64,000 bases of DNA from Nitrososphaerota archaeon. GTDB lineage: Archaea; Thermoproteota; EX4484-205; JAAOZP01. Under the pieces are notes generated by a model that did not search any database, had not been told where the DNA came from, and was given only the letters and a program-made list of their open reading frames with translations. Position numbers and translations under genes: made by a program. Below are positions 3,794-45,384 of the stretch, piece after piece. Positions within the stretch are counted from its first letter, which is position 1. Each line of letters opens with the position of its first letter. Location of the stretch: contig JAAOZP010000012.1 of NCBI GenBank assembly GCA_011605725.1, positions 32,001 through 96,000 of the forward strand, read 5' to 3'.

Positions 3794-4441
3794 CTATTTC
3801 TTGCCCACCCAAGCCTTGCAGATGTCGACTCCAACCACCGCATCCTTCCCATAGCCGTCGGCGCCAATCCTCTTAGCATAGTCCTCAGTTATCGGAGCCC
3901 CGCCAATAATCACTTTAACCTTGTCCCGCAAACCAGCCTTCTTAAGCTCGTTAATCACATTCTCCATCTCAACCATCGTGACAGTCAGAAGCGCCGACAA
4001 GCCCACGATATCAGGCTTATGATTCCTAACAGCATCCACAATAGCCTCAGCCGGAACATCATTACCAAGGTCAATGACCTCGAAGCCAGCAGCCTCCATC
4101 ATCATCCCGAAAATGTTCTTCCCAATATCGTGGAGGTCGCCCTTGACCGTTGCTATTACTGCTTTTCCTATTTTTTTGATTTCTGTGCCTTTCATGTATG
4201 GCTGTAGCATTTGCGATATTTCTTTTCCTATTTCTCCTGCGACTATCAATTCCGACAAAAAGTATTCTGATGCTTCGAATTTTCTCCCGACTTCCTCCAT
4301 TGCTGCGCTTATCCCTTTAGAGATAATCTCGTTGGGCGGTATTCCTTTTGCAACAGCTTCCTGTGCTAGGCGTTTGGAGCCGTCGAAATCTAGGTTGACT
4401 ATCGCGTTCTTCAGCTGTGTAAGTAGATTTTCCTCAGACAT
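3794..4441 (-). CDS. Corrinoid (B12-binding) methyltransferase protein, MtaC/MtbC family
   Basis: Cap domain plus GDLHDIGKN (DxHxxG), GLSALL and IIGGAP motifs. Confidence 0.95.
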   Translation of the reverse strand: MSEENLLTQLKNAIVNLDFDGSKRLAQEAVAKGIPPNEIISKGISAAMEEVGRKFEASEYFLSELIVAGEIGKEISQMLQPYMKGTEIKKIGKAVIATVKGDLHDIGKNIFGMMMEAAGFEVIDLGNDVPAEAIVDAVRNHKPDIVGLSALLTVTMVEMENVINELKKAGLRDKVKVIIGGAPITEDYAKRIGADGYGKDAVVGVDICKAWVGKK

Positions 4442-4566
4442 GTTTCTTCAAGGCTGGCATATGTTTCTTCTTGATAAATCTTTCGTTTACGGGGATGGTT
4501 TTTCTTACTGAGGTGTCTTAATCATGGCGGTGTAGTGTGTGTTAGAAAAATGTAAGGTTTTTATAC

Positions 4567-5772: not shown

Positions 5773-5834
5773 ACATTTTCGACTGTGCCCAGCATGGTGG
5801 AGTTGACTTGCATGCGAAACGCTAAGACTAGAAA

Positions 5835-6803: not shown

Positions 6804-6807
6804 TGAA

Positions 6808-7995: not shown

Positions 7996-8001
7996 GCTGG
8001 A

Positions 8002-9084: not shown

Positions 9085-9167
9085 GGCAAGCCTATTGTCT
9101 AACAGCTTGCCGCATTCAAGTAGAAAAAGTTAATAGAAGCGGAAACCATGAATCCATACGATGAGGA

Positions 9168-10655
9168 ATGAAGAGCACTAGAATAGGTTTAACAATGCTT
9201 CTCGACGAGAGGAAGCATGTTTATCCGAATTATTACGAGAAATGTTACAGGGCTGTTGAAAACTGGGCAAGGTTCATCAGAGATTCGATAAAGTTTTCAG
9301 ATGGCGGTTCGCCGGAGACAGTTGTTTCATCGGAACTCATAAACTCGATAAACACTGCAAGGAGGGTTGGAGAGGAGTTTATAAGCAAGGGAGTTAGGCA
9401 AGTAATCCTTGTTTACAACGTCTGGAATTTCCCATACCTAGTCTGGCCTTTCGTTAACACTCTGGGGAAGGATAAGCCGATACTTAACCTTTCGAACAAC
9501 GAGGGCAAGTATCCAGGCAACGTCGGCCTACTTGCTACGGATGGTGCTTTGAGGCAGGCTGGCTTCAGGACGCATAGGATTATCGGCGATCCTGAAGACC
9601 CGGTGGTGAAGGAGAAGGTGAAGAAATGGGTTATGGCGGCAATAGCTGCGACAAACATTAGGAACGAGGTTTATGGCATGTACGGTGGACATTCTATGGG
9701 AATGGAGACGGGCTATTTCCACCTCGTCCCCATACAGAGGTATTTCGGAACCACTGTAAGCCAGGTTGACCAGCTGCTCCTGGTTGAGAGAATGAAGGAG
9801 ATAGATGATCAGGAGGTTGAAAAAGGCTTGAAATGGATTGAAGAGACAATAGGCGAAATAAAGTATGACGGAAAAATGCTTACGAGAGAAACACTTGGAA
9901 AGCAGATAAGAATGTACCTTGCGGTCAGAAGGATAAACGAGGAGATGGGTTTCGACTTCTGCGGGATTAAGGGTCAGAGAGAGCTTTCCGAACACGTGGT
10001 AATACCCGATGTCGCCGAAATGTTGCTTAACGATCCGTATGACTGGAACGGCCCTAAGGAGCCGACTGTCTGCGCCACCGAAGCCGATTCTTTCGCCGCA
10101 TTAACAATGCAGATACTGAAGTATGTAAGTGGCGGGCTGCCTGTTCTCTTTATGGATGTTCGACTCTACCATCCTGATTTAAACGTGTGGGACTTCTGCA
10201 ACTCCGGTAATCATGCAAGCTGGTATGCTTCAAGAAGCTTCAACCCCAAGGATAATCTGAGAAAGGTTACGCTTCACCCTGCGTTAGAACTCTACTTTAA
10301 AGCAGGAGGAGCATCCGTCTCATTCGACGCCGGCCCAGGAGAACTAACTTTCGCCAGACTAGGCTTGTTCAACGACAAGATTTACATGATAATAGTTAAG
10401 GGTGAAAGCATGGAGCTCGATGAGGAGACAAGGCGGAGGATAAACGCGGAAACTGATCCCACGTGGCCTCACGTACATGCTAGGTTGAAATGCTCGTATG
10501 AAGAGTTTACAGAAATGTTTCCAGCTAACCATATTCACGCCGTCGCTGGAGATCGTGTTCAAGAATTGAAATACTTCTGTGAAATAACTGGCGTGACACC
10601 AATAGTCTTAGGAGGGGAAGAGTATTCGAAGCCTATTTGGGACCTTCTCAAGTAA
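9168..10655 (+). CDS. L-fucose isomerase-like (FucI/AraA family)
   Basis: GHSMGM, GQRELSEH, DPYDWNGPKEP-CATEAD, WPH and ANHIH motifs of L-fucose isomerases. Confidence 0.85.
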   Translation: MKSTRIGLTMLLDERKHVYPNYYEKCYRAVENWARFIRDSIKFSDGGSPETVVSSELINSINTARRVGEEFISKGVRQVILVYNVWNFPYLVWPFVNTLGKDKPILNLSNNEGKYPGNVGLLATDGALRQAGFRTHRIIGDPEDPVVKEKVKKWVMAAIAATNIRNEVYGMYGGHSMGMETGYFHLVPIQRYFGTTVSQVDQLLLVERMKEIDDQEVEKGLKWIEETIGEIKYDGKMLTRETLGKQIRMYLAVRRINEEMGFDFCGIKGQRELSEHVVIPDVAEMLLNDPYDWNGPKEPTVCATEADSFAALTMQILKYVSGGLPVLFMDVRLYHPDLNVWDFCNSGNHASWYASRSFNPKDNLRKVTLHPALELYFKAGGASVSFDAGPGELTFARLGLFNDKIYMIIVKGESMELDEETRRRINAETDPTWPHVHARLKCSYEEFTEMFPANHIHAVAGDRVQELKYFCEITGVTPIVLGGEEYSKPIWDLLK

Positions 10656-17319: not shown

Positions 17320-18114
17320 ATGAAAGTATGGATAATGACGGATCTTGAGGGGGTTGCAGGGGTCTTCAGCTTCGAAGAACATGCAAGCCCTAAGGGTAGG
17401 TGGTACGATCTTTCTAGGAAACTCTTGACTCAAGAGGTGAATGCTGCTATTGAGGGCGCGCTGGAACAGGGGGCTAAGGAAGTGCTCGTCGTCGACGGTC
17501 ACGGATATGGCGCGGTAAACATAGAGGAGCTTAATCCTGAGGCTAAGCTTCTCTCGGGTAGGCCACTCCTAATTCCATGGGGTTTGGAGAAAGGGTTTGA
17601 AGCAGCCTTTATGATAGGGCAGCATGCCATGGCGGGTGTGGAGAAGGCGCACCTGAGCCATACTGAGAGCCATACTGCTATTCAAAACGTTTGGATAAAC
17701 GGGGTTAAAGCCGGAGAGATAGCGATAGTTGCTGCAGTAGCAGGGTATTTCGACGTACCACTGGTTTTAGTCACAGGCGATAAGGCTGCATGTCTCGAGG
17801 CGGAGTCTCTAATACCTGGGTTGGAAACCGTGGGTGTAAAAGAAGGGTTAAGCCACGGGGCGGCAGTAAGTGTGACGCCGACTAAGGCTAGGATAATGAT
17901 TAAAAACGGTGCTAAGAATGCTCTTGCAAAAGCGAGCAGCATACTTCCCTATAGAGTGAAAAAGCCGGTTGAGCTCGTAGTCGAGTTTACTGAGGAGAGC
18001 AAGAGTTCTGCTGAAGTACTGTCTAGAAGACCAGGTGTGAAAAGAATCGATACTAGAACAATAAAAATCGAGGAGAATGATCTGCTTGAAGCCCTTAGAA
18101 GATGGTGGATGTAA
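17320..18114 (+). CDS. dppA: D-aminopeptidase, peptidase M55 family
   Basis: DLEGVAG, VDGHG, GQHAMAG, LSHT and VTGD motifs. Confidence 0.9.
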   Translation: MKVWIMTDLEGVAGVFSFEEHASPKGRWYDLSRKLLTQEVNAAIEGALEQGAKEVLVVDGHGYGAVNIEELNPEAKLLSGRPLLIPWGLEKGFEAAFMIGQHAMAGVEKAHLSHTESHTAIQNVWINGVKAGEIAIVAAVAGYFDVPLVLVTGDKAACLEAESLIPGLETVGVKEGLSHGAAVSVTPTKARIMIKNGAKNALAKASSILPYRVKKPVELVVEFTEESKSSAEVLSRRPGVKRIDTRTIKIEENDLLEALRRWWM

Positions 18115-20004: not shown

Positions 20005-21222
20005 ATGTCCAGCCCAATTAATGGTGAGAAGAGTACGGTTGAGAAGCGAATTTCATGGTGGCTTGAAGCAAGATTCGGCATGTTCATCCATTGGGGGCTC
20101 TACGCGATTCCAGCACGTGGAGAATGGGTCATGTATTGCGAGCGAATACCTAAGGACGAGTATGCCCTTCTAGCTCAAAAGTTCAACCCTAAAAAGTTTG
20201 ACGCGGACAAATGGGTTGCGCTCGCTAAACAGGCGGGGGCCAAATACATGGTTTTAACCACGAGGCACCACGACGGCTTCTGCCTATGGGACAGCAGTGT
20301 CTCCGACTTCACATCTGTCAAGACAGCCGCTAAAAGGGATTTTGTCGCAGAGTATGTGGAGGCATGTCGGAAAGCAGGTATGCGCATCGGCTTCTACTAC
20401 TCATTGCTAGACTGGCGTTGGCCAGCTTATTGGGATGGGCCTGAGAAGAACCCGGAGGGTTGGAAAGAGTTCCGGAACTATGTTCACGCCCAAGTCAGAG
20501 AGCTCATGACCAACTATGGGAAAATAGATATACTGTGGTACGACGGCGCTTGGCCTCATAGCCCAGAAGCATGGGGGTCTGAACAGCTTAATGCGATGGT
20601 TCGCAGCCTCCAACCGGAAATCATAATAAACAACAGGTCTGGATTACCGGAGGATTTCGACACTCCTGAACAACGCATAGAAAGATCCCTTAGGCCTTGG
20701 GAAGCATGCATGACTATAGATGATCTCTGGTGGGGCTATCATCCTGGCGACCCAAATCTGAAATCTCCAATGCAGCTTGTGAGAAGTCTGGTTAAATGCG
20801 TCTCGGGAAACGGGAATTTTCTGCTGAACGTTGGACCTAAAGCAGACGGCACCATTCCACCAGAGCAAGCAGCCAGAATGAGAGCTATTGGAAGATGGTT
20901 GCGGCGAAACGGCGAGTCAATATATGGCGCTGGGGCCGCTCCATTCCAACAGCCTCATTTGGGTCAAGTCACTATGAAAGGCAGTAAAGTGTATGTGCAC
21001 GTTATGTTCTGGCCTGGAAGAGAAATGTGCGTAGCCGGGATTAAAAACAGGGTTTTAAAAACATACATGTTGGCAAGTGGGAAAAAACTCCTTTTCGAGC
21101 AAAAGGAAGACCGTCTTTTCATACGTGGACTACCCTTACGCGCACCAGACCCTATAGACACCGTTGTCGTCTTAGAAATAGAAGGAGAGCCTGAGGTCGC
21201 CCCGCCATCATTCTGGAAGTGA
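20005..21222 (+). CDS. Alpha-L-fucosidase, GH29
   Basis: RFGMFIHWG, TTRHHDGF, YYSLLDW, LWYDG, WEACMT, LLNVGP. Confidence 0.95.
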   Translation: MSSPINGEKSTVEKRISWWLEARFGMFIHWGLYAIPARGEWVMYCERIPKDEYALLAQKFNPKKFDADKWVALAKQAGAKYMVLTTRHHDGFCLWDSSVSDFTSVKTAAKRDFVAEYVEACRKAGMRIGFYYSLLDWRWPAYWDGPEKNPEGWKEFRNYVHAQVRELMTNYGKIDILWYDGAWPHSPEAWGSEQLNAMVRSLQPEIIINNRSGLPEDFDTPEQRIERSLRPWEACMTIDDLWWGYHPGDPNLKSPMQLVRSLVKCVSGNGNFLLNVGPKADGTIPPEQAARMRAIGRWLRRNGESIYGAGAAPFQQPHLGQVTMKGSKVYVHVMFWPGREMCVAGIKNRVLKTYMLASGKKLLFEQKEDRLFIRGLPLRAPDPIDTVVVLEIEGEPEVAPPSFWK

Positions 21223-21239
21223 AGAGAAACACTTATGAT

Positions 21240-21992
21240 TCAGAAAACTATTCCAAGCCTTTTCCTCTCACCAACGACGTGTTCAGCCACATCCATCACT
21301 GGGGCAACCCATATCTCGTCACGACGTTCATACAGGAATCTTAAAAACCCCGATAGGTCTTCATAAGCAACGGGTAGATGACCCTCATCAATACCGTGAA
21401 AAGTGAATATTGCCCACCTGCCCTCGTGAACAGTCTTAACGGTTAAGCCTATCATTTCTTCGCATCTCATCCGGTCAGCCGGCCATGACCATAGCTCATG
21501 CAGGTCGCAGGCAAGCGGTGAATTAGAATAACCCCTCTCTCCGTAAGCCCTAGCTGCTAGGAAGATTTCAGCTACAATCGGCACGTAGCTCCTCTTGTTC
21601 AAGCCCCTGCCGACGCTTGTTTGATAACAAGGGTAAGCGAAAGTTCGGCTACCGTTAGGTATTAGGCTTCTTATTCTTTCATGAGCCTTAACAATGTCTA
21701 GGCGAATATCCTCTAGAGTCATGTTCTCCAATCCTCTGCAGCCAGGATCACCTGGAAAATTGCATGAACAGGGATGCGTAACACTGTGGTTACCTATTTC
21801 ATGGCCACGGTCAGCAACATCCCTCCATGCTTTCAAAGCATTCTCATAACCGTCTCCAGGATTTATGTAGAATGTTGCCTTAAAACCGAATCGCTCGAGC
21901 AGGGGTACGCCCAAACGCAATTGCGAAGGCAAACCGTCGTCGAAAGTCAGTGAGACAGCTCCTTTAAACCTGCTCGGCCAATTAAACCTCAT
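21240..21992 (-). CDS. Polysaccharide deacetylase (NodB/CE4)
   Basis: SLTFDDG, HEIGNHSVTH, FAYP, FTFH. Confidence 0.9.
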   Translation of the reverse strand: MRFNWPSRFKGAVSLTFDDGLPSQLRLGVPLLERFGFKATFYINPGDGYENALKAWRDVADRGHEIGNHSVTHPCSCNFPGDPGCRGLENMTLEDIRLDIVKAHERIRSLIPNGSRTFAYPCYQTSVGRGLNKRSYVPIVAEIFLAARAYGERGYSNSPLACDLHELWSWPADRMRCEEMIGLTVKTVHEGRWAIFTFHGIDEGHLPVAYEDLSGFLRFLYERRDEIWVAPVMDVAEHVVGERKRLGIVF

Positions 21993-22295: not shown

Positions 22296-25200
22296 ATGAA
22301 ATACTGGAGAAACAGTAGAACGATTTTTACTATTCTAGTATTAGCATTAACCCTCCTAACGCTGCCTCTCGAAACCAGTCTTACGAATTGGCATAATATA
22401 GATGGGAAAAAGGCGTTCTCCCAAAGAAGCATGGTAATCGGTGCCGTAGCCTCACCAGTGGTCTCAATGCGCGTAAAAGTTCTGAACGCTTTAACTGGTG
22501 AAGCAATTCCAAACGCTACTTTAATAATTCTGGATTTAAAGAATCCTAGAAGGCCGGAAATAGGTCAAAGCATTTTCTTCACCAACGCGGATGGAGAGTA
22601 TGATGTTCCAGAGGAAATTGTAAAACCTGGAAGAACCTACTGGGTTTACGCTTACAAGGGGGATCTTAAGGAGAAGAGGATGGATTTCGTACCGGTTAAA
22701 AAAGAGGTTCGAGTCGGGGAAACCGGCAGTATTGAAGTGACTCTTTCACTGGTTCCAGGCGCACTAGTAGAATTGGAGAGCGTTCCATATATTGTTCAAG
22801 CATCAAGCCTTCAAGAGGGCAACATGATAATAAGAGTCATAGTGAAACAGAAGGGTTTCAATTTCTCGCTAATCACTGACTACGGGGACGCGATAGACGT
22901 TTTCTACCTGGGGCTGGACAGGAAAATGATCCCGGTTCCGTCTGGAACACCTTTCGAGCTTGAGGTCAGCGTCTCGCTTGTATTGCGGGAACGTGAACGA
23001 GTATCGGAAATTTTCTACATTATGAACGGGACGCAACCCTTCATCATGCCGCAGAGAGGTTACGCAACTGTTAAAATTTCAGAGTACAGTCTAAGAAGGG
23101 GTTTGGAATATGTGAAATCAGCTCTAGTAGGAGTTTCTTCAAAGGTTGACGAGGCGCAGGAAATCGGCTTCACGGTTTTCGAGGAGAGGCGTGTACTGGG
23201 GCATGCAAACCAGAAACTAGTGGAGGCCAGCACTCTACTGTCAAACGCGAAAACAGATGAAGACTTCGAAAAAACCTGGTTTACACTCCGGGAAATACTT
23301 GGAGAAATAAATTTCGTAGCCACGATGATAGAAAGCAAGTATCTGGTTGGAAAGACTAATGCGGTTTACCTCTCCGCAGTAATCGTGATATTCAGCACTG
23401 TTCTCGCATTCTTCTTCTTTGAGAAAACCATGTTAAAAATTGTTTCATTAGCCGTCATCTACGTAGTGTTATTGGGAGCAATGTATTTTATAAACCCAGG
23501 TACTCACGTTGTAATCGATGAAAACCTTCCCCTCTTCTCTTGGACGGCAGCAGTATCCTTCATCATAACCTCCACAATTGTCTTCGGCATTCCACGCATC
23601 TGGAAGGAGAGAAATATTGAGGGAGAGGTTCAATGGAGAAGCGCCATTTCAGTAATATTCTCAATGAGTAAGCGTCAGATAAAACGCAAAAAAATACGTG
23701 GCTTCTTCACAATATTTTCAATATGCATGCTTATTTTAGCGTTCACCGCTCTAACCACCTTTGGAACAGCCTTCGGAATAATTTCTAGAAGGTTGGAGGG
23801 AACTCCGTCTTCAGACGGTTTCCTCATAAAGCGCATGGTTAACGGCTCGTCGCTGATCTTCTCCCCCTTGGGGGCAGGGGATGCTCAAGTCCTCATGAAG
23901 ATAGTGCCCGCGATTGATGTGGCTCCAAGGATGAAAAGCGTTCCGCGGTATGAGCCGGTTGCTAGACTCATAAACCCGGCCACTGGCAACAGTCATCCTA
24001 TTTACGGTGTGCTCGCCATATCGCCAGGAAACGAAGCCCTCTACACAATGCTCGACGAGATGGTTGAGGGTAGTTATTTAAGCGATGAGGCGTATGGTGA
24101 AGCAATCGTAGGATTTGGAACACTAAACAGACTAGGTTTAAAAGTAGGCAGCAATGTCACGCTAGAAATACCGGGTACTACGATAACGGAAACCATGGTA
24201 ATCAAGGGCTTTATCAGGGACGAAGAGTATGAGAGGCTAACGGATGTTGACGGCAGCCCTCTCGGCCCCGCACGTCTCCTTCAAGACGGTTCGGCGAGAA
24301 GATGCAACAGTTCAGAGATAATAGTGATTAACCTTGAGACTGCGAAGAGAATTCAGGAGAAGATCAACAGTCTTTATGGTGCGAACGCCCCTCAGCTCGT
24401 CGTTCCCTCCGAGATACTTTTCAGGCTGAGAGACTCGGAAGACGTGGGGGCAATTGTCAGAAGCATTATTTTCTTCTTTAACTACGATGTCTTTGTCTCA
24501 TCTAAAGGCGTAGCGAACTACTACTATATTGGTTCGTATATAGAGTTCGGCGGGGCTGCGGAGCTGCTGATTCCACTAGTGATGGTTGTATTAAGCATAG
24601 GCATGGTTATGGTCAACAGTGTCTACGAGCGTGAGAGAGAAATAAAGACTCTTTCAACACTCGGGTTAAACCCGACCCACATAGGATTAATGTTTGTTGC
24701 TGAAGCAATAATAATGGGAATGGTTGGAGGAAGCATAGGATACTTGACCGGGTTAGGCTTTTATAGAACCATGGTTTTCATAGGACAGAACCTTTTAGAA
24801 AACCTCATGGTCAGAGAGAAACTGGAGTGGTGGTGGAGCGCACTGGGATTTGTTTTCGCAATAGCCGTCTCAGTATTCTCGGCTGCAAGACCTGCAGCCC
24901 TAGCTATCCGCACTTACACACCGTCGATGGTGAAGAAGGTCAGGAGAACGGAGGAACAACGGAAGGAGCGGAAGGAGAAAATATTCAGGGTTTTCCAGGC
25001 GAGAAGCGTCAGTATGCCTGTGAAAATACTGGTTAACGAGAAAGAGTTCTTCACAGGCTTCCTGATTGACCACTTAAACCAGTTGAGGACGGGTTATAAG
25101 GAGAGAATCGAAAACGTTGAGGATGTTCCGGAAGAAGCGGATTCTAAAGGCATGCTTACGAAAACCGTAAGATTCAACTATTATGTGGGACCGGTTGGGA

Positions 25201-25391
25201 CCAAGAACGGGACGAAGAATAGCCTGGTTTTAACCAAGACCCCAGCTGAGGAATACTACAGGGTTACACTTGTTACAGAGCCAACATCGCCAGGGATTCC
25301 GGAGAGCACAATAGATAGAACGGTTGAATACGTCCATTGGATTCTAATGCTATGGGTTAAGGAAAAGAAGAGAATAATGGGTTCGGCTTAA
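22296..25391 (+). CDS. Large FtsX-like permease-domain membrane protein with extracellular domains
   Basis: Signal peptide, beta-rich ectodomain, TM cluster, and SVYEREREIKTLSTLGLNP-MFVAEA FtsX motif. Confidence 0.8.
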   Translation: MKYWRNSRTIFTILVLALTLLTLPLETSLTNWHNIDGKKAFSQRSMVIGAVASPVVSMRVKVLNALTGEAIPNATLIILDLKNPRRPEIGQSIFFTNADGEYDVPEEIVKPGRTYWVYAYKGDLKEKRMDFVPVKKEVRVGETGSIEVTLSLVPGALVELESVPYIVQASSLQEGNMIIRVIVKQKGFNFSLITDYGDAIDVFYLGLDRKMIPVPSGTPFELEVSVSLVLRERERVSEIFYIMNGTQPFIMPQRGYATVKISEYSLRRGLEYVKSALVGVSSKVDEAQEIGFTVFEERRVLGHANQKLVEASTLLSNAKTDEDFEKTWFTLREILGEINFVATMIESKYLVGKTNAVYLSAVIVIFSTVLAFFFFEKTMLKIVSLAVIYVVLLGAMYFINPGTHVVIDENLPLFSWTAAVSFIITSTIVFGIPRIWKERNIEGEVQWRSAISVIFSMSKRQIKRKKIRGFFTIFSICMLILAFTALTTFGTAFGIISRRLEGTPSSDGFLIKRMVNGSSLIFSPLGAGDAQVLMKIVPAIDVAPRMKSVPRYEPVARLINPATGNSHPIYGVLAISPGNEALYTMLDEMVEGSYLSDEAYGEAIVGFGTLNRLGLKVGSNVTLEIPGTTITETMVIKGFIRDEEYERLTDVDGSPLGPARLLQDGSARRCNSSEIIVINLETAKRIQEKINSLYGANAPQLVVPSEILFRLRDSEDVGAIVRSIIFFFNYDVFVSSKGVANYYYIGSYIEFGGAAELLIPLVMVVLSIGMVMVNSVYEREREIKTLSTLGLNPTHIGLMFVAEAIIMGMVGGSIGYLTGLGFYRTMVFIGQNLLENLMVREKLEWWWSALGFVFAIAVSVFSAARPAALAIRTYTPSMVKKVRRTEEQRKERKEKIFRVFQARSVSMPVKILVNEKEFFTGFLIDHLNQLRTGYKERIENVEDVPEEADSKGMLTKTVRFNYYVGPVGTKNGTKNSLVLTKTPAEEYYRVTLVTEPTSPGIPESTIDRTVEYVHWILMLWVKEKKRIMGSA

Positions 25392-27087: not shown

Positions 27088-28275
27088 CTATGATGATTGA
27101 AAATAGTTTGCGAGATCAACCCAAGCTCCTGAAGAATCTAGACAGACATCGGCAAAAACAAGGATTCCTGAAGCTCCTCCCCTCATCGCCCCCTTTACTG
27201 ACTCGACCCACTCCCAGCCAGGCATGTTTCCAGTTCTTGATAACGATCCGCCGACGCAAGGCACGACCAGAATTTCACCATTATTCTTCTCAACCTGCTC
27301 AACTATCATCCTAGTAGTGTCCTCAACCCATTTAACAGGCATTTCGTGATCCCTATGATAAAGCATGGGGCAAACAACGTCGACAAGACCCTGTCTCACC
27401 CACTCGCCCCAGTCGACACCCATGGTCTGCCTGTTCCAATTCAAATCGTAAGAAACGTCAGCTGATAGAGTTATCTCCGGGTTAATCTGTTTGACAGCAT
27501 CCCTGATTTCCCTCAAGAAACCCGTTACGATCTGCACCCTCCAACTTATCCACTCGCTCCTCAAGCTTCCCCCGGCCAGCACGTCTTCAGGCCAGTTCTG
27601 TACCTTTCTGCCGATAAATGATTCAAAAGACTTTTTCGCGCTCTCGCTGAAGTCAGCCTCAATGCCCGGTGGGAAACCGAAATCATCCTCTATGTTTATA
27701 CCGTCAACACCATACTCCTGCACTAGTTCGATAATGTAGGACTTTATATAGTTCCTAGCGCCCTCGCTAGCCGGAGACAAGTAGTACCAGCCGTATGGGT
27801 TAAACGGGCCGTGTGAAAGCTGGTCCTCACCCTTCTCGTTAACTATTCCCCAGTCAGGATGTTGAAGAAGCACCGACCTGCTTGTTCTGAAGCCCAGAAC
27901 CCACGCCCAGACCCTCAGGCCGTTCCTATGGCTTTCTTCAACAACTATTTTCAAAGGATCTTCATCGCTTTCAAAATTATTAAGGTAATCCATGTCAACC
28001 GGAACGATTTTACTCCTGTAGTCAGCCAACCCTCCAGCATGGATTACAAAGGGAAGCACAATATTGAACCCGCTATTCTTGATTTTGCTTATGTAGAATG
28101 TGAGGTTTCTCGCAACAGACCTGTTGGGAAACTCGTACATGTATAGGAATACTCCTCTCACCTCCGGTTTAGGAGGCTCTTCAACCCTCATCATCCTGTT
28201 TAAGAAGAAATATGAAGCAGTCATCAGAAGCACTGTCAGAATTGGAAAAACAAGCATTATGCTTCTCTTAAACAT
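27088..28275 (-). CDS. Membrane-anchored GHL10 (DUF187/YddW-DigH-like) glycoside hydrolase
   Basis: N-terminal TM, EVRGVF, DPL...HRNGLRVWAW, YGVDGINIED, DWGEWVRQGLVDVVCPMLY. Confidence 0.85.
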   Translation of the reverse strand: MFKRSIMLVFPILTVLLMTASYFFLNRMMRVEEPPKPEVRGVFLYMYEFPNRSVARNLTFYISKIKNSGFNIVLPFVIHAGGLADYRSKIVPVDMDYLNNFESDEDPLKIVVEESHRNGLRVWAWVLGFRTSRSVLLQHPDWGIVNEKGEDQLSHGPFNPYGWYYLSPASEGARNYIKSYIIELVQEYGVDGINIEDDFGFPPGIEADFSESAKKSFESFIGRKVQNWPEDVLAGGSLRSEWISWRVQIVTGFLREIRDAVKQINPEITLSADVSYDLNWNRQTMGVDWGEWVRQGLVDVVCPMLYHRDHEMPVKWVEDTTRMIVEQVEKNNGEILVVPCVGGSLSRTGNMPGWEWVESVKGAMRGGASGILVFADVCLDSSGAWVDLANYFQSS

Positions 28276-28436
28276 GCAATCTTAAGGGAGGAGACGTTTA
28301 AAAGCTTAATCGATAAATCAACGTGGAAAAGAAAAACCCATATAGCCTGATGATAACGACTGCGGCCAACCCTGTGAAACGCATGCCGATTCTCTAGAAG
28401 AATGAATCTAAATCCTTAGTGTAAGCTTCCGTTGAA

Positions 28437-29105
28437 CTAGCCGGTGGACTGCTCCTCGTAATATTGTTTCACAAGCTCCATAAAGTGCTTCCAATCCCAG
28501 TTCACTCCAGGGTCATAGTGATGACTCTTGCCGCCGCCGACGCTGGGGTCAGAAGGATCTGGAACCTGGTTGTGACCTATTACCCCACTTCCCTGAGTAG
28601 GGTCTGCGGGGGCAAGGCCCTCAGGGTGTTGAAGCGAAACATTATACTTCTTAAGCAAGTAGGCCACCAGCTTAGCGGAAGCCTTATACTCCTCCTCCGT
28701 AAAAATCTTCCGGTCAGCGTAGCCAGCGTGCTCGATACCAATAGAATGCTCGTTGTAAGCCCAGTTGCCAGCGTGCCAAGCAATATCCTTCTCCTTAACC
28801 ATCTGGTAAACCATGCCATCGTAACCAACAATGTAATGCGAAGAAGCCTTAGCCCGAGGATCTTTAAACCAGTTTAATGCAGCCTGCGCATCACCCTCTA
28901 CAACATGAATAATGATCCACCTCACTTTCAACCCGTTAGCCTCCCTATTGCTCTCGGAAAAATTGGACTGGAGAGCTGGCTCCCAGGCGGCTTCAGGATA
29001 ATCTGTAGCCTCAGGTTTCGAGCCCAGCTTGAAAAGGAAAACAACCATGAGAAGTGGAAGAACTAGCGTAAGCAAGAGGAGGGGACGGTTCCTCATTTGA
29101 AGCAA
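28437..29105 (-). CDS. Membrane-anchored N-acetylmuramoyl-L-alanine amidase (Amidase_2, AmpD-like)
   Basis: N-terminal TM; IIIH, ASSHY, AWHAGN, SIGIEH, GH and DPG provide the His/His/Asp Zn ligands and the catalytic Glu. Confidence 0.92.
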   Translation of the reverse strand: MLQMRNRPLLLLTLVLPLLMVVFLFKLGSKPEATDYPEAAWEPALQSNFSESNREANGLKVRWIIIHVVEGDAQAALNWFKDPRAKASSHYIVGYDGMVYQMVKEKDIAWHAGNWAYNEHSIGIEHAGYADRKIFTEEEYKASAKLVAYLLKKYNVSLQHPEGLAPADPTQGSGVIGHNQVPDPSDPSVGGGKSHHYDPGVNWDWKHFMELVKQYYEEQSTG

Positions 29106-29159
29106 GATTCTTCACGCCGTATTTAAGAATTCCGTTTTAAAGCGCAATTTTAAATAGTA

Positions 29160-30365
29160 GTGTCTTCATGTGCTTTTCGAGGAAAAGTGCTAAGGATCAG
29201 TGTTTTCACACTCTTACTGATGCTCTTGACCTCAGCAATAAGGACTACGCTAAGTGCCTCAGGCTCCTCTGGAAAAAAGAGTTTCTACGTAGGAGTCTGG
29301 CTAGGAATGTATAGCGACTACTGGCCTAGTGAGAAAACAGAATGGTTGAGAAAGGTTGACGAAGCCTTCAAGTCCTTCAGGGAAGCCGGGATCGACGCCA
29401 TCTATTTTCTAGTTAAAGACCCTTGGGGATATGTTTACTACGAATCCAAGTATGCTCCATTGTCTGAGAAATACAGCTGGGATCTTTTAAGAGAGGTTGT
29501 GGCGAAGGCTAGGGAACATGGTCTCCAAGTATACCCGTATGTAAACGCGTTGGCAGAGGGGGAGACTCAGCCGAACTTCTACCTGAAGGAACATCCTGAC
29601 CTAGCGGTTTCATCTGCAAACGGTGAGAACGGTTGGGTTGACCCATCTAGCGGAGAATACGTTAATAGACTGATATCTATCGTTGAAGAAATCGTTTCAA
29701 ACTATGATGTAGACGGGTTGCAGTTGGACAGGATAAGGATGCCGGGGCCAGTAATAAGGGCGAAAGCCAGTGAAAAACTCTACACGGAGACAACTGGGCT
29801 CACCCCAGCTAACGATGAGAAAAAGTGGCAGGAGTTCGTGAGAGTATTTGAAAAAGTTAAATCAATAGATATGAGCCTGAGGCTTTCCGCCGCGGTTTTC
29901 CCATCCCCTTCGAACGCGGCTTTAAACCAGCTTCAAGACTGGAAGAAATGGGTTGAAGAAGGATGGGTTGACTACGTATGCACGATGGCTTACGCACAGG
30001 GGTTTTACACATTCAAGGCTTATGTAGATGAGGAGAAGGAGGCTTGCGAGCCTGGAAAACTATATGTGGGAATAGGCGCGTGGCAATTGTCCGCGTCTGA
30101 ATTGAAAAAACAGATAAAGTACGTTGTAGTCGACTCAGGACTACCTGGAGTACTATTGTTTAACGGGGATTCTCTACTCAGCAATACGGAGCTTTTAAAC
30201 GCCGTAAAGGAGGCGAAGGAGGGAAAGTTTGGGGAAGACTCATCCTCCTTCCCGTTTATGCTTAGCGCCTCCTCAGCCACCATACTGCTCTGCACAACGC
30301 TATTCTTGCTCCACCTACATGGAAAAAAGCGGAGGAAAAACGTTTCTTTAAAGAAAGCTTATTAG
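29160..30365 (+). CDS. Secreted GHL10 (DUF187) glycoside hydrolase with C-terminal TM anchor
   Basis: Signal peptide, WDLL...HGLQVYPY, YDVDGLQLDRIR, QDWKKWVEEGWVDYVCTMAY, then TM and a basic tail. Confidence 0.85.
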   Translation: MSSCAFRGKVLRISVFTLLLMLLTSAIRTTLSASGSSGKKSFYVGVWLGMYSDYWPSEKTEWLRKVDEAFKSFREAGIDAIYFLVKDPWGYVYYESKYAPLSEKYSWDLLREVVAKAREHGLQVYPYVNALAEGETQPNFYLKEHPDLAVSSANGENGWVDPSSGEYVNRLISIVEEIVSNYDVDGLQLDRIRMPGPVIRAKASEKLYTETTGLTPANDEKKWQEFVRVFEKVKSIDMSLRLSAAVFPSPSNAALNQLQDWKKWVEEGWVDYVCTMAYAQGFYTFKAYVDEEKEACEPGKLYVGIGAWQLSASELKKQIKYVVVDSGLPGVLLFNGDSLLSNTELLNAVKEAKEGKFGEDSSSFPFMLSASSATILLCTTLFLLHLHGKKRRKNVSLKKAY

Positions 30366-32651: not shown

Positions 32652-32665
32652 TAGCGCGCGCGCTA
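32652..32665. repeat. TA(GC)5TA 14-bp palindromic junction run
   Basis: TAGCGCGCGCGCTA. The downstream frame of the next gene begins immediately after it. Confidence 0.85.
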
Positions 32666-32795
32666 AGGGGGAATAGCTGTATTAGGTTCTTGGCAGACAG
32701 TCACCCAAGGCGATAGGGAAAGCGGTTTTGTCCCCGACGTCATGAATATTCTGCTGATAAAGGAAGACGGGTCTTTGAGGCTGGAAAAAGCATAA

Positions 32796-34001
32796 TTGGG
32801 CCAATTCAGTCACTTTAGAAACGTCGAGAGAAGGTATGAAAGGTTTTGTGCAGAAGCCAGTGAAGAAGTACCGGGAAAAGGAGTTGAGGGAGAAGGAGAA
32901 TTTCACAAAGCTCATGTGGATTGGGATGATCTTGGGGAGCATGAGATTTTACACCTTAGACATGGAGTACTACAGGAACTTGTAGAGGGAGCAATAGAAA
33001 AGACTAATAGTATGCTGAGGATACAAGAAGAAGCAGGTGTATCGCGAAAAGCCCTGCATGCGATAGAAAAAGGGAGCGATATCATAAGTGTTAAGAACCT
33101 AAAAGGTCTGTGCGATTACTTAGAGATACCGCGTTGGGAAATGGATAAGCATATAATTGGGATCGGTAGTTCTCGAAACCCAGATGCATTAGAGAACCCA
33201 CACCTACCTTTTGACTTCAATACTCCTGAGGGAGCTACGATAATAGCGGCAGCCCTACATGACGGTTATCTTAGGAGTGATGGGACGACTTTCTCATATG
33301 CAAACAAAGATGAGAGGAACGTAGAAACTGTAAAGGAAGCCGTTAAGAAAGTTTTCGGGGATATAAAGCCACTCGAAGAGAAATACGAGTGTGGCGTGAA
33401 GAGAGTGGATTTCATGTCTTGTGCAATAGTGGACGCCTTGGAAAAAATAGGCTTACCGACAGGGAGTAAGACCAAACAGCGATTTCATGTGCCATTATTC
33501 GTCCGAGAAGGCGATGAAGAGTTGCAAAAGGCATACTTACGCCAGACCTTAATGGATGAGGGGAGCTGGAGAGAGTATAAGGGTAGAGTAGAGGAAATAG
33601 CTTATACTCAATCAACATATCTTGATGAGGATAAGCTCACTACTAAGGACATGGAATTTCTCAGGAACTTAGGATTTGAAGAATGTGAAATGCCAACAGG
33701 AGCCCCAGTATACCGTCTTCGTCTTACTAAAGAAGTAAGGGATGAAATAATGAGTGAGGACCCCAATTTATGGAAGGCAATAGAAGAATCTAAACCACCT
33801 AATTTTGAGGAGGAGAGGGAAATGTTCGAAAAATTGTTTGGCGCGCATCCAGATGTGCATCCCAGAGACGTATATTATACAGAAAAAGGAGGTTATAAAG
33901 TGTCATGGGAACTAGTAATTGACGAAGCAGAGGACGCCCGCAGAATTGCGGAAGAACTTAATCTCCCTATACCTAAGCATGGGGGAAAGGAAGGAGAATA
34001 G
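32796..34001 (+). CDS. Xre-type HTH plus LAGLIDADG (DOD-type) endonuclease-like protein, probably 5' truncated
   Basis: QEEAGVSRKALHAIEKG-ISVKNLKGLCDYL HTH; IIAAALHDGYL and AYLRQTLMDEGS LAGLIDADG-like helices; YANKD and VPLFV. The frame is also open 32667-32792 before one TAA. Confidence 0.7.
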   Translation: MGQFSHFRNVERRYERFCAEASEEVPGKGVEGEGEFHKAHVDWDDLGEHEILHLRHGVLQELVEGAIEKTNSMLRIQEEAGVSRKALHAIEKGSDIISVKNLKGLCDYLEIPRWEMDKHIIGIGSSRNPDALENPHLPFDFNTPEGATIIAAALHDGYLRSDGTTFSYANKDERNVETVKEAVKKVFGDIKPLEEKYECGVKRVDFMSCAIVDALEKIGLPTGSKTKQRFHVPLFVREGDEELQKAYLRQTLMDEGSWREYKGRVEEIAYTQSTYLDEDKLTTKDMEFLRNLGFEECEMPTGAPVYRLRLTKEVRDEIMSEDPNLWKAIEESKPPNFEEEREMFEKLFGAHPDVHPRDVYYTEKGGYKVSWELVIDEAEDARRIAEELNLPIPKHGGKEGE

Positions 34002-40870: not shown

Positions 40871-42577
40871 TCATTCTGTTTGAGAAAGAGCAGTCATCAG
40901 CTGTTGCCTAATCTCGTTAAACTTCGAAACGTTTTTCTCGTAGTCGGTTATGGTTCTGACGAGCTGGTCTGCTAGCTCCCTGGCCTTAACGGGGTTTTGT
41001 TCCTCCAGCATCTTGAGCAGTTCGTAGTCCTGAACCCCTAGTCTTAAAACTTCAAGCCTTATGGAGCTCAATGGGCCTTCTCTTCCAGGGTATATTATGA
41101 AAGCGTCGCCAGGAGGCAGGTTGTTAGGCTCCACGTTTTTAAACGGGTTTTCAGACCAGTAGTTTAGTCCCCAGTGAAGATAGCCTGAAAGATTATACTT
41201 GAAGTTTATCCAGTGCAGGATCCTGACTTTTATTAACGGATAGTCGATGAACCTGTTCGGATACTTTCCAGTTGGAGCAAGACAGGTATAGAACCATACT
41301 TCTTCTCCAGCTGCTTTTCTCTGATTGTAAAAAGCTTGATTCTCATCAAACTGGTTTAACAATGGGACCCAGACGTCTAAGGCTCCGACAAGCTCTTCAG
41401 TAGCCTGGTTCGCTTCAATTATCCTTATTTTCGGCGCCAGCTTCCTAACGTAGCCGGCGAGTATTCTATAGCTTTCTGAACTTGCAGGAATCGGTTCGTC
41501 GGCTAAATGCTGCATGTAGATATTGATCCACCCTTTTTCCTCCAGATGCTTCTGTAATTGAGGAAGGAATTTGGAGAGGAAGCAGTAGTACTCTTTTGAA
41601 GTTATGTCCATGGAAGGCACCTTATAGGCTAGGGATCCATCCGCTCTGTAAACCATTGTTTCGTAAGAGTAGAACTCCTTTGCTTCCCATTCTTTCCTGT
41701 AGGCAAGATGCCCTCCTTCAATTCTTCCAACCACGCCTTCTTCGATGAAAAGCTCAACCCAGCGATCAAAGTTTGAAAAATCGCATTCAATAGTTCCGTT
41801 TGAGGCTTCTATGAATTTTATTAATTGGAGGATTGGAGTTATAATTATGTTTTGACGATACTTAGAAAGAAACTTAGCATAGTTTCTAATCAACTTCCAA
41901 TATTCCTCATCTCGTGACTTTATGTTATAATAATCAAAGAGCTTGTAATCTCCAAACCAATTTGTTATCCACAACGTTCTTCTTGAAGTGAGTATAACAG
42001 GATAAACCTTTAAAGTAATTTGAATCGAAGCATTTGACTTTTCTGAGATCACATAAATCTCTCCCGTGTAGTTTCCTGGGGGTGCTTCTGGTGGGACGAA
42101 AATAGTAACCCAAACTGGTTGAGTTTCTCCGGATTTCAGATCAATATACTCAACATTCAACAGTGGGTCCGGAAAATCCAATGGGGGTGAACGTACTACT
42201 CGCACCAATTCCTCAGGAGGAGTAGCTGGCGTATTCTTACTAACCGGAACGAATCCAACAAAGTTCGCAGAAAAATTCATCTTAAATCCATCCGGACCCT
42301 CAAGGAATCCAGTTTTAAGATGAACCTTTAGATCTTCTCTTCCTACGGTTATGGCGAATTGCGCTGCAGCATACTCATTTCTTACAGCCTCGACATACAA
42401 AGAAGTTTTTCCACTCGGCTTTGTATCTTTAAAGATCTTTTCAAGCGGATCTGCAGCCCAAACTAAGAATTCCCCCTCTATTTGATATTCCTCCTTCATT
42501 TGATTAATCGATAATAGTGAAACTAGACATAAAAATATTGCTGAAACTGTCAGTATAATAATCTTCAGTTTTCTCAT
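40871..42577 (-). CDS. Membrane-anchored DUF4091/GH123-like glycoside hydrolase
   Basis: N-terminal TM, RNEY, PDPL, LADEP, WFYTC, GYLHWG, PGDAFIIYP, SIRLE-QDYE. Confidence 0.82.
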   Translation of the reverse strand: MRKLKIIILTVSAIFLCLVSLLSINQMKEEYQIEGEFLVWAADPLEKIFKDTKPSGKTSLYVEAVRNEYAAAQFAITVGREDLKVHLKTGFLEGPDGFKMNFSANFVGFVPVSKNTPATPPEELVRVVRSPPLDFPDPLLNVEYIDLKSGETQPVWVTIFVPPEAPPGNYTGEIYVISEKSNASIQITLKVYPVILTSRRTLWITNWFGDYKLFDYYNIKSRDEEYWKLIRNYAKFLSKYRQNIIITPILQLIKFIEASNGTIECDFSNFDRWVELFIEEGVVGRIEGGHLAYRKEWEAKEFYSYETMVYRADGSLAYKVPSMDITSKEYYCFLSKFLPQLQKHLEEKGWINIYMQHLADEPIPASSESYRILAGYVRKLAPKIRIIEANQATEELVGALDVWVPLLNQFDENQAFYNQRKAAGEEVWFYTCLAPTGKYPNRFIDYPLIKVRILHWINFKYNLSGYLHWGLNYWSENPFKNVEPNNLPPGDAFIIYPGREGPLSSIRLEVLRLGVQDYELLKMLEEQNPVKARELADQLVRTITDYEKNVSKFNEIRQQLMTALSQTE

Positions 42578-42762
42578 TCTTCTATGTTTGTCAGCAGCCC
42601 ATTCTATTATTAAACTTTTTTACTAATACCCCTAACGCTAACCAGCACATACCGTTCGATTTCAGAACCAATTCTGGTGATTTACCCATAATCGCAATAG
42701 CGTTTAGCGAGCCCTGCGGGAAGACGATTATTCGTAAAGTGGAAGCCGCTGTTCCCGAGGGG

Positions 42763-43728
42763 TTAAACAACAAGCTCCCCCCTCTCCAAGAGGTGTTCTA
42801 TGCATTCCCGGTAAATATCTTCCGTAGTGTAGCGCGGCCGGTAGCCGAGCAGACGTTGGGCCTTCTCTATGCTGACGCAGGGAGAATGAATAACGTGATC
42901 CCTAGTAATGGCAAACGCCTCCTCACCAAGGACATCCGACATTTTCTGCAGCGGGATAAACCTGAGGTTCGGCTTCCTCCCGAAAAGAGACGCTACAAAC
43001 TCGCAGCAGTATGAGAGGGTTACAGCGTAAGGCGCTGCAACGCTGAACGATTCTCCCAAGGCTGCTTTACGGTTTAGGATCGCCAGTTCAAAAACCTGTG
43101 CCACATCATCAGCATGAACATGATGAAGAGTTGCCAGTCCATTATCAGGCAGGTATACAACGTCTCCGCGAGCCAGGCTTCTGTACACATTAACACCGTT
43201 TCTAGTCCCCTGAGGATCTATGGGAAGCCATTTCCTACCGCAAATGTGGCCCGGATGAATCACTGTTGCCGGAAAACCCTCCCTATCGTATTTCTTAAGG
43301 AGGTTGGCTTCAATCATTGCCTTGTTTATACCGTACTCTGTGATAGGCCTTCTGGGATAGTTCTCCCTGTAGGGTACTCGAGTGCTAGGCCCATATGCCC
43401 ATATGGTACCACAATGGATAAAATGGCTTACATGACCCTCAAGGTTCTCAACCATAATCCTGTTCTGCTCAGGAGTAAAACAAATAAGGTCTATCACGAC
43501 ATCAGCCTCAACCTCAGCCATACGCTTCCCCCAGGAGCCGTTCTCCTCCTCCCTAATCCTGTCAGCAAGGATCCATTCAACCTGACTCCACAAGGCTTCG
43601 GTGCCGGCAGAACCATAATATGGCTTAGGGTTTCGCGCCAGAACCTGCACCTCATATCCATGCAACACTAAGCGTGGCACAAGGTAGCTTCCGATATGCC
43701 CGGTTCCACCGATTATTAGGACCTTCAT
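42763..43728 (-). CDS. NAD-dependent epimerase/dehydratase (extended SDR)
   Basis: GGTGHIG, YGINK (YxxxK), HADDVA. Confidence 0.9.
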   Translation of the reverse strand: MKVLIIGGTGHIGSYLVPRLVLHGYEVQVLARNPKPYYGSAGTEALWSQVEWILADRIREEENGSWGKRMAEVEADVVIDLICFTPEQNRIMVENLEGHVSHFIHCGTIWAYGPSTRVPYRENYPRRPITEYGINKAMIEANLLKKYDREGFPATVIHPGHICGRKWLPIDPQGTRNGVNVYRSLARGDVVYLPDNGLATLHHVHADDVAQVFELAILNRKAALGESFSVAAPYAVTLSYCCEFVASLFGRKPNLRFIPLQKMSDVLGEEAFAITRDHVIHSPCVSIEKAQRLLGYRPRYTTEDIYRECIEHLLERGELVV

Positions 43729-43806
43729 CCCTAGACCAGCTGTTGATAAAGATCCCCTACATATAAAGATTTATATTTCCTTCCAAGAATTCGCAACAAG
43801 TGTTTA

Positions 43807-45384
43807 ATGAGCGAAAGAGTTGTGATGAGCATCGACCAGGGGACCACGGGCTCCCGAGTCTCACTGTATAAGCATGATGGAACACCTTATCCCAACGGCT
43901 GGTGTTACGTTGAGCATTCGCAATCCTACCCTAAACCCGGCTGGGTTGAACATGATCCTGTTAAAATATGGCTGAACGTTAAGCACTGCATCAGGAACGT
44001 TCTGGATAAGACTGGCGTTAAACCAGGAGAAATTGTTGCGATAGGCGTCACGAATCAGCGTGAAACAGTCGTGGCTTGGAACCCTAAGACAGGAAGGCCT
44101 GTTTCAAACGCCATCGTGTGGCAGGATCGCCGGACAGCTAAGCTGGTTGACTATCTCCGGGAGAACTTTTTAAAAGACATTGTCGAGAAAACCGGTTTGA
44201 TTCCAGATAGCTATTTCTCAAGCACAAAGATATGGTGGATGCTTGAAAACATCAAGGGTCTACGTGAAAAGGCTTTGAAAGGAGAAGTCGTTTTCGGAAC
44301 GGTAGACACATGGATCATATGGAACCTGACGAATGGTTCTCGAGATATTCAAACCCCGGAGTACAAGGGTGCATTCGTAACCGATTACAGCAACGCGTCT
44401 AGAACAATGCTCTTCAATATTCACGGGCTCATGTGGGATGAGGGCCTTGCTGAAATACAGGGTAAAATACCTGTCGAGGCGCTTGCAATACCAAGGCCTA
44501 GTAGTGATAAAGAGGTTTACGGATGGACTGGCCCAGAGGTTTCAAGCCTTTTTGAAGGCTTAAGCAAGCCGGTGACCGGCGACGCTGGAGACCAGCAGGC
44601 TGCTTTACTTGGCCAAGCAGGGTTTGAACCCTACGATGTGAAATGCACCTATGGCACAGGTAACTTCATACTGATGAATACCGCAGGGAACAAGGTGCAC
44701 TCCAAGTCCGGGCTGCTGACCACAATACTCTACAGTGTTGAACCGGGTAAAGCAGTCTATGCTCTCGAGGGAAGCGTTTTCATCACCGGTGCAGCAATCC
44801 AATGGCTTCGCGACGGTTTGAAGATAATCGAGGTCTCGGGGGAAGTGAATCCTCTCGCTGAAGCTGCTGAAGACACAGGCGGTACTTATTTCGTACCGGC
44901 CTTCACAGGGCTTGGAGCACCCTACTGGGATCCGTATGCGAGGGGCATGATTATAGGTTTAACTAGGGGGACAGGCAGGAGGCATATTGCTAGGGCGGTT
45001 TTAGAATCCATCGCATACTTGACTTGCGACGTGGTTGAAGCAATGAGCAACGATACTGGCAGAAGGGTGGAAAAACTTAAAGCAGACGGCGGCGCATCAC
45101 GGAGTGACTTCCTGCTTCAATTCCAGTCTGACATACTTAATGCAACTGTCGTCAGGCCTTTTGTGCAGGAGACAACCAGCCTGGGAGTAGCTTATCTTGC
45201 TGGCCTCGCCGTGGGTTTCTGGAGAAGCATAAGCGAAGCTAGGAAAAACTGGAGGATAGAGAAAGAGTTTTCCCCTAGGATGAGCCGGGAAGTTAGAGAG
45301 AGACTGTATGATGGTTGGAAGGCGGCTGTTAAAAGATCATTAGGATGGGCTATGGAAGTACCTTGGGCCTATGGCTACGAGTAG
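43807..45384 (+). CDS. glpK: Glycerol kinase
   Basis: DQGTTG, GWVEHDP, TNQRET, WQDRRT, GDQQAAL, TYGTG, APYWD. Confidence 0.95.
   Translation: MSERVVMSIDQGTTGSRVSLYKHDGTPYPNGWCYVEHSQSYPKPGWVEHDPVKIWLNVKHCIRNVLDKTGVKPGEIVAIGVTNQRETVVAWNPKTGRPVSNAIVWQDRRTAKLVDYLRENFLKDIVEKTGLIPDSYFSSTKIWWMLENIKGLREKALKGEVVFGTVDTWIIWNLTNGSRDIQTPEYKGAFVTDYSNASRTMLFNIHGLMWDEGLAEIQGKIPVEALAIPRPSSDKEVYGWTGPEVSSLFEGLSKPVTGDAGDQQAALLGQAGFEPYDVKCTYGTGNFILMNTAGNKVHSKSGLLTTILYSVEPGKAVYALEGSVFITGAAIQWLRDGLKIIEVSGEVNPLAEAAEDTGGTYFVPAFTGLGAPYWDPYARGMIIGLTRGTGRRHIARAVLESIAYLTCDVVEAMSNDTGRRVEKLKADGGASRSDFLLQFQSDILNATVVRPFVQETTSLGVAYLAGLAVGFWRSISEARKNWRIEKEFSPRMSREVRERLYDGWKAAVKRSLGWAMEVPWAYGYE

Follow-up and report, generated by a model that had tools for sequence, protein, structure and literature searches.

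The window analysed here is a stretch of 64,000 nucleotides (nt) from contig JAAOZP010000012.1 (positions 32,001 to 96,000) of a Nitrososphaerota archaeon (assembly GCA_011605725.1). Our subject is a set of three neighbouring genes within it, encoding one Amidase_2 protein and two proteins of the GHL10 family, GHL10-A and GHL10-B, which together form a candidate module for the breakdown of bacterial peptidoglycan. The amidase and GHL10-B are divergently oriented, with about 90 nt separating their likely starts, and GHL10-A lies downstream of the amidase on the same strand after a gap of 161 nt. The genes, with their lengths in amino acids (aa), those of the amidase and GHL10-B being for the full open reading frame (ORF), and the predicted promoter region are as follows:

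27088-28275, minus strand: GHL10-A, 395 aa; Pfam PF02638, E 9.3e-31, 107.5 bits against a cut-off of 27.9
28437-29105, minus strand: Amidase_2, of the N-acetylmuramic acid (MurNAc)-L-alanine amidase family, ORF of 222 aa; Pfam PF01510, E 1.9e-32, 112.8 bits against a cut-off of 26
29097-29186, no strand assigned: putative divergent promoter region of the amidase and GHL10-B, read from the sequence and a four-genome alignment
29160-30365, plus strand: GHL10-B, ORF of 401 aa; Pfam PF02638, E 5.3e-22, 78.7 bits against a cut-off of 27.9

Following the database forms, the amidase likely starts at the ATG at 29096, giving 219 aa, and GHL10-B likely at the GTG at 29187, giving 392 aa. TATA-like A/T-rich boxes, TTAAATA on the minus strand and TTTTAAATA on the plus strand, are each found about 25-30 nt upstream of the likely start codon, a spacing that would fit leaderless archaeal transcripts, and AATTTTAAATAG ahead of GHL10-B is conserved in the alignment of four genomes. 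All three proteins start with a hydrophobic N-terminal helix. In addition, GHL10-B ends in a hydrophobic helix followed by the basic tail GKKRRK, a combination that is a common anchoring mode of archaeal surface proteins. These helices are visible in the AlphaFold2 (AF2) models, at residues 4-35 and 365-400 in that of GHL10-B. A preliminary description of the window had reported an anchored Amidase_2 with complete zinc and catalytic residues between two exported or anchored GHL10 proteins, and this arrangement was borne out by the Pfam matches, the hydrophobic N-termini and the invariant residues described below. The window was also scanned for RNA genes, with no tRNA and no Rfam family detected.

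The arrangement is very unlikely to have come about by chance, since the genome holds a single Amidase_2 gene and six GHL10-like genes; the chance that both neighbours of the amidase are GHL10 genes is about 6e-6, as a rough estimate for some 2,200 genes.

The origin of the DNA was examined at several levels. The genome (2.23 Mb in 20 contigs, 93% complete, 1.7% contamination) contains archaeal 16S and 23S ribosomal RNA (rRNA), contig C1 correlates with the remaining genome at 0.995 in tetranucleotide composition, and the 10 kb around the trio have a tetranucleotide score of 0.952, exceeding the genome median of 10-kb pieces. The locus is present with the same flanks in four sister genomes, and the stretch recurs near-identically in at least 10 hot-spring and sediment metagenome runs from at least nine studies; no RNA dataset is listed as carrying it. 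Two contigs that stem from other studies, X6 with 23.5 kb and X3 with 11.2 kb, span the trio and its neighbours at about 99% identity, and close homologues carry the labels Candidatus Brockarchaeota or Thermoproteota archaeon. A check for bacterial contamination, which the preliminary description had called for, thus came out negative: the contig is archaeal, and the rRNA, the native composition, the synteny with sister genomes and the independent spanning contigs leave practically no room for a contaminant or an assembly chimera.

The amidase and its GHL10 partners

Five residues of the amidase, His67, Tyr91, Glu125 (in SIGIE), His178 and Asp198 (in DPG), are invariant in 27 clade members. 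The zinc triad His67/His178/Asp198, the catalytic Glu125 and Tyr91 align with the motifs of AmpD and AmpDh2/3, which, together with AmiD, are also the PDB relatives of the protein. The Lys of AmpD and T7 lysozyme is replaced by His in the window amidase and likewise in its nearest bacterial relatives. Because of the N-terminal membrane anchor, the catalytic domain should face outward. The archaeal amidase clade features a 12-residue insertion that its bacterial relatives do not have. In a quick tree, calculated after exclusion of the frameshifted L013 and L032, the query, the fusion proteins described below and other metagenome sequences form one clade (34 rows, Shimodaira-Hasegawa-like approximate likelihood ratio test 83), and the haloarchaeal copies, a Thermoproteales copy and bacterial groups (Actinomycetota/Chloroflexota/Planctomycetota) meet in an open fork. 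As this fork is open, the phylogeny proposed earlier as a way to find a bacterial donor names none.

Both GHL10 proteins are modelled by AF2 as TIM barrels. For GHL10-A (predicted local distance difference test, pLDDT, 94.2), the best fold match is Cwp19 (5oq2; E 2.9e-20, TMt 0.75), which is also its sole sequence match in PDB (E 7.9e-12), and for GHL10-B (pLDDT 88.6) it is again Cwp19 (E 2.2e-19). After Cwp19, the next fold matches of both are to the C-terminal domain of PgaB, a hydrolase of poly-N-acetylglucosamine (PNAG). Identity between the archaeal proteins and Cwp19 is 17-20% over the fold alignment. Motifs were read from alignments with E. coli DigH (K-12 record) and with Cwp19, the active-site signature of which consists of Asp195-Asp196-Tyr197, Trp127 and Arg132 (PMC5765458). 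GHL10-A retains the Asp-Asp after strand 4 (EDDF), the Trp...Arg pair and the strand-6 Tyr, as in DigH and Cwp19. Its orthologues are intact in four sister genomes at 81-86% identity, and its close relatives make up a small archaeal clade, with at most 36% identity to bacterial members. GHL10-B has LDRIR at the Asp-Asp position and Val for Arg, with the alignment register there provisional, and its motif resembles a very large LD[YR]IRYP subfamily of GHL10-like barrels. The initial naming of both proteins as DigH-like hydrolases therefore holds for GHL10-A, which has the Asp-Asp signature, and not demonstrably for GHL10-B.

Gene order and gene fusion mark GHL10-B as the evolutionary partner of the amidase. 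A genome of a different family (G023, family f4) retains the divergent pair of the two at 71% and 62% identity, and the metagenome contig L110 retains the complete trio. Conservation of the neighbourhood, which had been proposed as a check, was thus found in the form of a pair or trio across two families of the order, and it extends to fusions in related archaea. In a genome of the same order (G024), both domains lie in one open frame of 531 aa that is truncated by the contig end. A search for longer homologues of the amidase returned as top relatives proteins of 588-594 aa in which an anchor is followed by Amidase_2 and then GHL10, and further relatives of 889-909 aa in which GH18 precedes Amidase_2 and GHL10; the fusion proteins are labelled as Thermoproteota and Sulfolobales archaeon. 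Seen from GHL10-B, an amidase domain is part of the protein in four of the five nearest 50%-identity clusters, with a strong match in P0143, P0264 and P0149 and a weak one in P0265 (4e-7). Relatives of the GH18 part of the triple fusions are YdhD of B. subtilis and the spore-cortex-lytic SleL and YaaH, all of which act on peptidoglycan. On an unrelated metagenome contig (L116), an amidase homologue of the archaeal clade (51% identity) and a separate GH18 gene that resembles this GH18 part lie 2.4 kb apart, the two genes occupying 490-1323 and 3761-4762.

Divergent genes cannot come from the simple split of a fusion, and the divergent and fused arrangements would therefore represent independent solutions to the linkage of the two domains. 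Searches with local hidden Markov models found no GHL10 gene beside the amidase at 28 bacterial genome loci and 72 further metagenome loci, nor beside the haloarchaeal or Thermoproteales copies, and no amidase-GHL10 fusion was present at about 100 bacterial loci. As the GHL10 neighbour is absent from the bacterial loci, the coupling looks like an archaeal invention rather than an imported bacterial operon.

Catabolic genes and the proposed route

We read the three genes, with a probability of roughly 0.68, as a cell-surface module that would dismantle bacterial peptidoglycan for food. The strongest independent support for this harvest reading is a set of catabolic genes in the same genome. On contig C3, MurQ passes three NCBIfam models (the TIGR00274 equivalog with 364 bits against a cut-off of 302, NF003915 and NF009222). 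Divergent from murQ are a GNAT gene, a PIG-L deacetylase gene, namZ (match 1e-69, with the C-terminal domain matched too) and the gene of a BadF/BcrA-type sugar kinase, and a GlmA-like glycosidase and a D-2-hydroxyacid dehydrogenase are encoded near this cluster. NamZ is known to take MurNAc off the non-reducing end (PMC8054146). The kinase beside namZ is MurK-like at the family level only (NagK equivalog, 97 bits against a cut-off of 370). AnmK, the substrate of which is anhydro-MurNAc, is encoded on contig C4 (PF03702, 313 bits). Anhydro-MurNAc ends are in turn the product of lytic transglycosylases such as Cwp19 (PMC6016235). The genome further contains five GH3 and three GH20 genes. No signal peptide was found in any of the catabolic proteins, and NamZ, without one, is presumably cytoplasmic.

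Around anmK (G000:C4:159629-164527, corresponding to L109:7630-12528), we observed a convergent gene for a signal-less beta-lactamase-fold serine hydrolase, followed by Opp-type ATP-binding cassette (ABC) ATPases and a permease. The hydrolase and the ABC system are a candidate unit for the import and trimming of muropeptides. The genes do not include a phosphotransferase system (PTS) transporter, although no search was aimed at MurP or AmpG.

Of the 26 order genomes, the window genome counted, 15-17 have MurQ, NamZ and AnmK, compared with one of 35 from the rest of the phylum. The five members of the genus with GHL10-A/B all have MurQ, NamZ and AnmK, and nine of the 12 others have neither MurQ nor NamZ; since relatives are not independent samples, this co-occurrence is to be taken as a pattern and not as a statistic.

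Remodelling of an own wall was considered and rejected. The genome contains only one Mur-ligase-like gene, and hence no sign of murein synthesis was seen. This gene lies in the window at 58981-60309 and encodes a protein of 442 aa with Mur_ligase_M and Mur_ligase_C domains, which is probably a ligase of FolC or CapB type and not one of murein synthesis.

The proposed route has five steps, for which we infer both the outward topology and the order of action. The anchored amidase, given its family and intact residues, would first cut the MurNAc-L-alanine amide, freeing the stem peptides and leaving bare glycan. GHL10-A would then cut the bare strands, as it bears the signature of DigH, which acts on peptide-free strands, and of Cwp19, a lytic transglycosylase/muramidase. 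GHL10-B, which is fused to the amidase in relatives, would also cut strands, perhaps at another bond or chain length. The fragments would be imported, with the Opp-type ABC system beside anmK as the candidate importer, and could finally be processed by the signal-less NamZ, GH3 and GH20 enzymes, AnmK, the MurK-like kinase, MurQ and the PIG-L deacetylase, the genes of which are present and the activities predicted. The expected yield of this last step would be N-acetylglucosamine 6-phosphate (GlcNAc-6-P) or glucosamine 6-phosphate (GlcN-6-P) plus D-lactate.

The core of the preliminary description, a cell-surface system in an archaeon directed against bacterial peptidoglycan, is accordingly supported by the fusions, the conserved pair or trio and the presence of MurQ, NamZ, AnmK and a MurK-like kinase in the genome.

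Loss within the genus and competing explanations

Four of the 16 other species genomes of the genus carry GHL10-A/B. In three of them (G007, G016 and G002), GHL10-A and GHL10-B are direct divergent neighbours, 174-295 nt apart, and Amidase_2 was not found anywhere in these genomes. Homology to the 5' end of the amidase gene persists over about 170 nt in G007 and over a shorter piece in G002, which points to deletion of the gene there and not to its insertion in the window genome. The fourth (G010) has broken genes for both the amidase and GHL10-B, and the GHL10-B gene of G002 is split. Among the 17 genus genomes sampled, all three frames are open only in the window genome. In the metagenome runs X2 and X10, a contig joins position 28215 to 29283, skipping 1067 bases including the amidase, with 60 letters on the shorter side of the joint; this contig probably derives from a co-occurring relative in which the gene was lost, as in G007 or G016. 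The window copy of GHL10-B itself is without 27 nt (nine codons, in frame) after 29839 when compared with four independent metagenome assemblies and all orthologues, the matching nine residues being present in G007, G016, G023 and P0143. As these bases are found in the four assemblies and the orthologues, the window allele would be a private in-frame deletion. By all appearances, the module is eroding in some members of the genus.

Several observations weigh against the harvest reading. The amidase is gone in three sister species and broken in a fourth, while GHL10-A/B persist. The nine-residue deletion in GHL10-B lies in a helix where the confidence of the model dips, and the same protein departs from the active-site signature of DigH and Cwp19, as described above. 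One archaeal amidase subclade (54-56% identity) has no GHL10 within 5 kb. Pfam detected catalytic domains only, and no recognised wall-binding domain, in all three proteins, and LdcA (PF02016) was not found in the 93%-complete genome. Finally, one GHL10 member is reported to be active on starch (PMC9967864), so the family may not be wall-specific.

Among the alternatives, the one that survives best is that the module serves mainly as a weapon for breaching the walls of living bacterial neighbours, in competition or predation, with nutrition secondary; we consider this unlikely. Archaeal peptidoglycan hydrolases that kill bacteria were demonstrated only recently, in 2025, and the choice between killing and feeding was explicitly left open (PMC12352652). 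The enzymes of the window are predicted to be extracytoplasmic, and the triple fusions unite three lytic activities. However, all three proteins are membrane-anchored and not obviously free secreted toxins, they have no wall-targeting domains, and a full route for MurNAc and anhydro-MurNAc catabolism tracks the GHL10 pair across the genus. The anchors and the investment in catabolic genes make feeding the better single reading. Where harvesting or attacking had been offered as options, harvesting is thus favoured by the catabolic genes as the more probable; the two are not mutually exclusive, and a weapon role may coexist with feeding.

Less probable again is that the substrate of the GHL10 proteins is not murein but another glycan, for instance an exopolysaccharide rich in GlcNAc or the surface glycans of archaea, with the amidase having another amide substrate or being loosely associated. 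The PNAG hydrolase domains that come next after Cwp19 in the fold matches, the non-DigH motif of GHL10-B, the reported activity on starch and the wealth of other glycan genes in the window (fucosidase, GH123, BNR) would all suit this explanation, as would the survival of GHL10-A/B without the amidase in three sister species. Against it, repeated independent fusion and adjacency bind GHL10-B to an amidase with intact MurNAc-L-Ala amidase residues, the added GH18 domain is of the cortex-lytic type, and GHL10-A/B are confined to those members of the genus that hold MurQ, NamZ and AnmK.

The losses, remnants and broken genes in the four sister species, the private deletion in GHL10-B and the amidase-less joint in two metagenomes would also be expected of a decaying relic, passed down by an ancestor in which it was in use and by now inactive, in part or altogether, in the window genome, yet this is the least probable of the explanations and distinctly improbable, as all three reading frames are open there, the amidase retains every invariant residue, near-identical intact copies occur in the many metagenome runs noted above, intact homologues exist at 79-84% identity and GHL10-A is intact in all five of its holders.

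Surrounding genes, known systems and meaning

Two further genes of the window had been linked to the trio in the preliminary description, an M55 gene of DppA type and a CE4 gene:

17320-18114: M55, no signal peptide; far below the NCBIfam equivalog cut-off
21240-21992: CE4, no signal peptide; far below the NCBIfam equivalog cut-off

Both genes exist, but their membership is not supported: by sequence the products are cytoplasmic and only weakly like their bacterial namesakes, and the link to the trio goes no further than ordinary synteny. We therefore did not count them in the module.

The window also contains a gene for an FtsX-family permease of 1031 aa (22296-25391) with no adjacent ABC ATPase gene, which stands beside an FGGY kinase gene and GHL10-A in G010 too. 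Genes for glycan use are dense at 4567-10655, 20005-21222 and 40871-45384 and include those for BNR sialidase-like, L-fucose isomerase, GH29 fucosidase, GH123 and CBM9 proteins, together with two FGGY kinases, DHDPS-family and GFO/IDH/MocA-family genes and an epimerase. The organism appears to be specialised on complex glycans. Structural differences from the metagenome assemblies are found downstream of the trio. In the 23.5-kb contig X6, position 31831 is joined to 34030 with 41 shared letters, and the 2.2-kb segment between two TldD/PmbA-family genes is missing, which would fit an inserted element flanked by a 41-nt repeat. At 32652-32671, three assemblies have 401 letters against 18 in the window, and one X2 contig has the 12 letters GGCGCGCGCGCT in place of 33121-33506.

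The module resembles several known systems in part. In E. coli, AmiA/B/C strip the stem peptides and DigH (YddW), a GHL10 glycosidase, cuts the bare glycan; the same order is proposed here, and GHL10-A shares with DigH the Asp-Asp and Trp...Arg signature. The septal amidases of E. coli belong to Amidase_3, not Amidase_2. Moreover, the E. coli enzymes remodel the own wall at division and their genes are unlinked, whereas in the archaeal system the host lacks murein, the genes lie side by side or are fused, and the products would probably serve as food. DigH is described as a divisome glycosyl hydrolase for daughter-cell separation (PMC12288456). Cwp19 of C. difficile (PDB 5OQ2), a surface-located GHL10 lytic transglycosylase, is the only solved relative as well as the best fold match of both GHL10 proteins, and it cuts peptidoglycan to give anhydro-MurNAc ends and reducing ends (PMC6016235). 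Unlike the window proteins with their membrane anchors, it is an autolysin with CWB2 wall-binding repeats, and it has FDDY where GHL10-B has LDRIR.

On the catabolic side, MurQ, NamZ, the BadF/BcrA-type kinase, AnmK and the beta-lactamase-fold hydrolase beside anmK recall the murQ-murR-murP-amiE-nagZ-namZ rescue operon of B. subtilis and the kinase route of Clostridium acetobutylicum and Tannerella forsythia. In contrast to Bacillus, where NamZ is secreted (PMC8054146), the archaeal protein is signal-less. The archaeal set also differs from the B. subtilis operon in its spread over three contigs and in its inclusion of a PIG-L deacetylase of archaeal style and a GlmA-like glycosidase, and the host recycles nothing of an own wall.

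The closest precedent in archaea are the hydrolases of Strock et al. 2025 (PMC12352652), in which bacterial-type wall-cleaving domains are likewise aimed at bacteria. That survey required a catalytic and a cell-wall-binding domain in one protein (PMC12352652), a modular definition outside which the trio falls with its catalytic domains only, and which would therefore miss these proteins. Its main text has no mention of Amidase_2, GHL10 or Thermoproteota, and no catabolic back end was reported (PMC12352652). The NamZ family has been listed in Bacteroidetes, Firmicutes, Actinobacteria and gamma-proteobacteria (PMC8054146). A literature search of incomplete coverage yielded no paper that deals with MurQ, NamZ or AnmK of archaea or with fusions of Amidase_2 and GHL10.

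Large amounts of organic carbon and nitrogen are stored in peptidoglycan, the breakdown of which is normally credited to bacteria. With a surface front end and a matching catabolic back end in one genome, the hypothesis that this archaeon feeds on it is directly testable. The amidase-GHL10 fusions provide genomic support, from outside bacteria, for the amidase-then-GHL10 order known in E. coli, and they point to an unstudied GHL10 subfamily. Given the hot-spring source, the enzymes may be heat-stable wall degraders. A wider picture, to which we would give slightly less than an even chance, is that a hot-spring archaeal order built its own wall-eating apparatus from bacterial parts, by pairing or fusing an archaea-specific Amidase_2 with GHL10-B, sometimes with GH18, and adding complete MurNAc and anhydro-MurNAc catabolism. 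The members of this order could then be dedicated consumers of bacterial peptidoglycan in geothermal settings, and GHL10-B would represent a new subfamily of glycan-cleaving enzymes, the active site of which differs from those of DigH and Cwp19.

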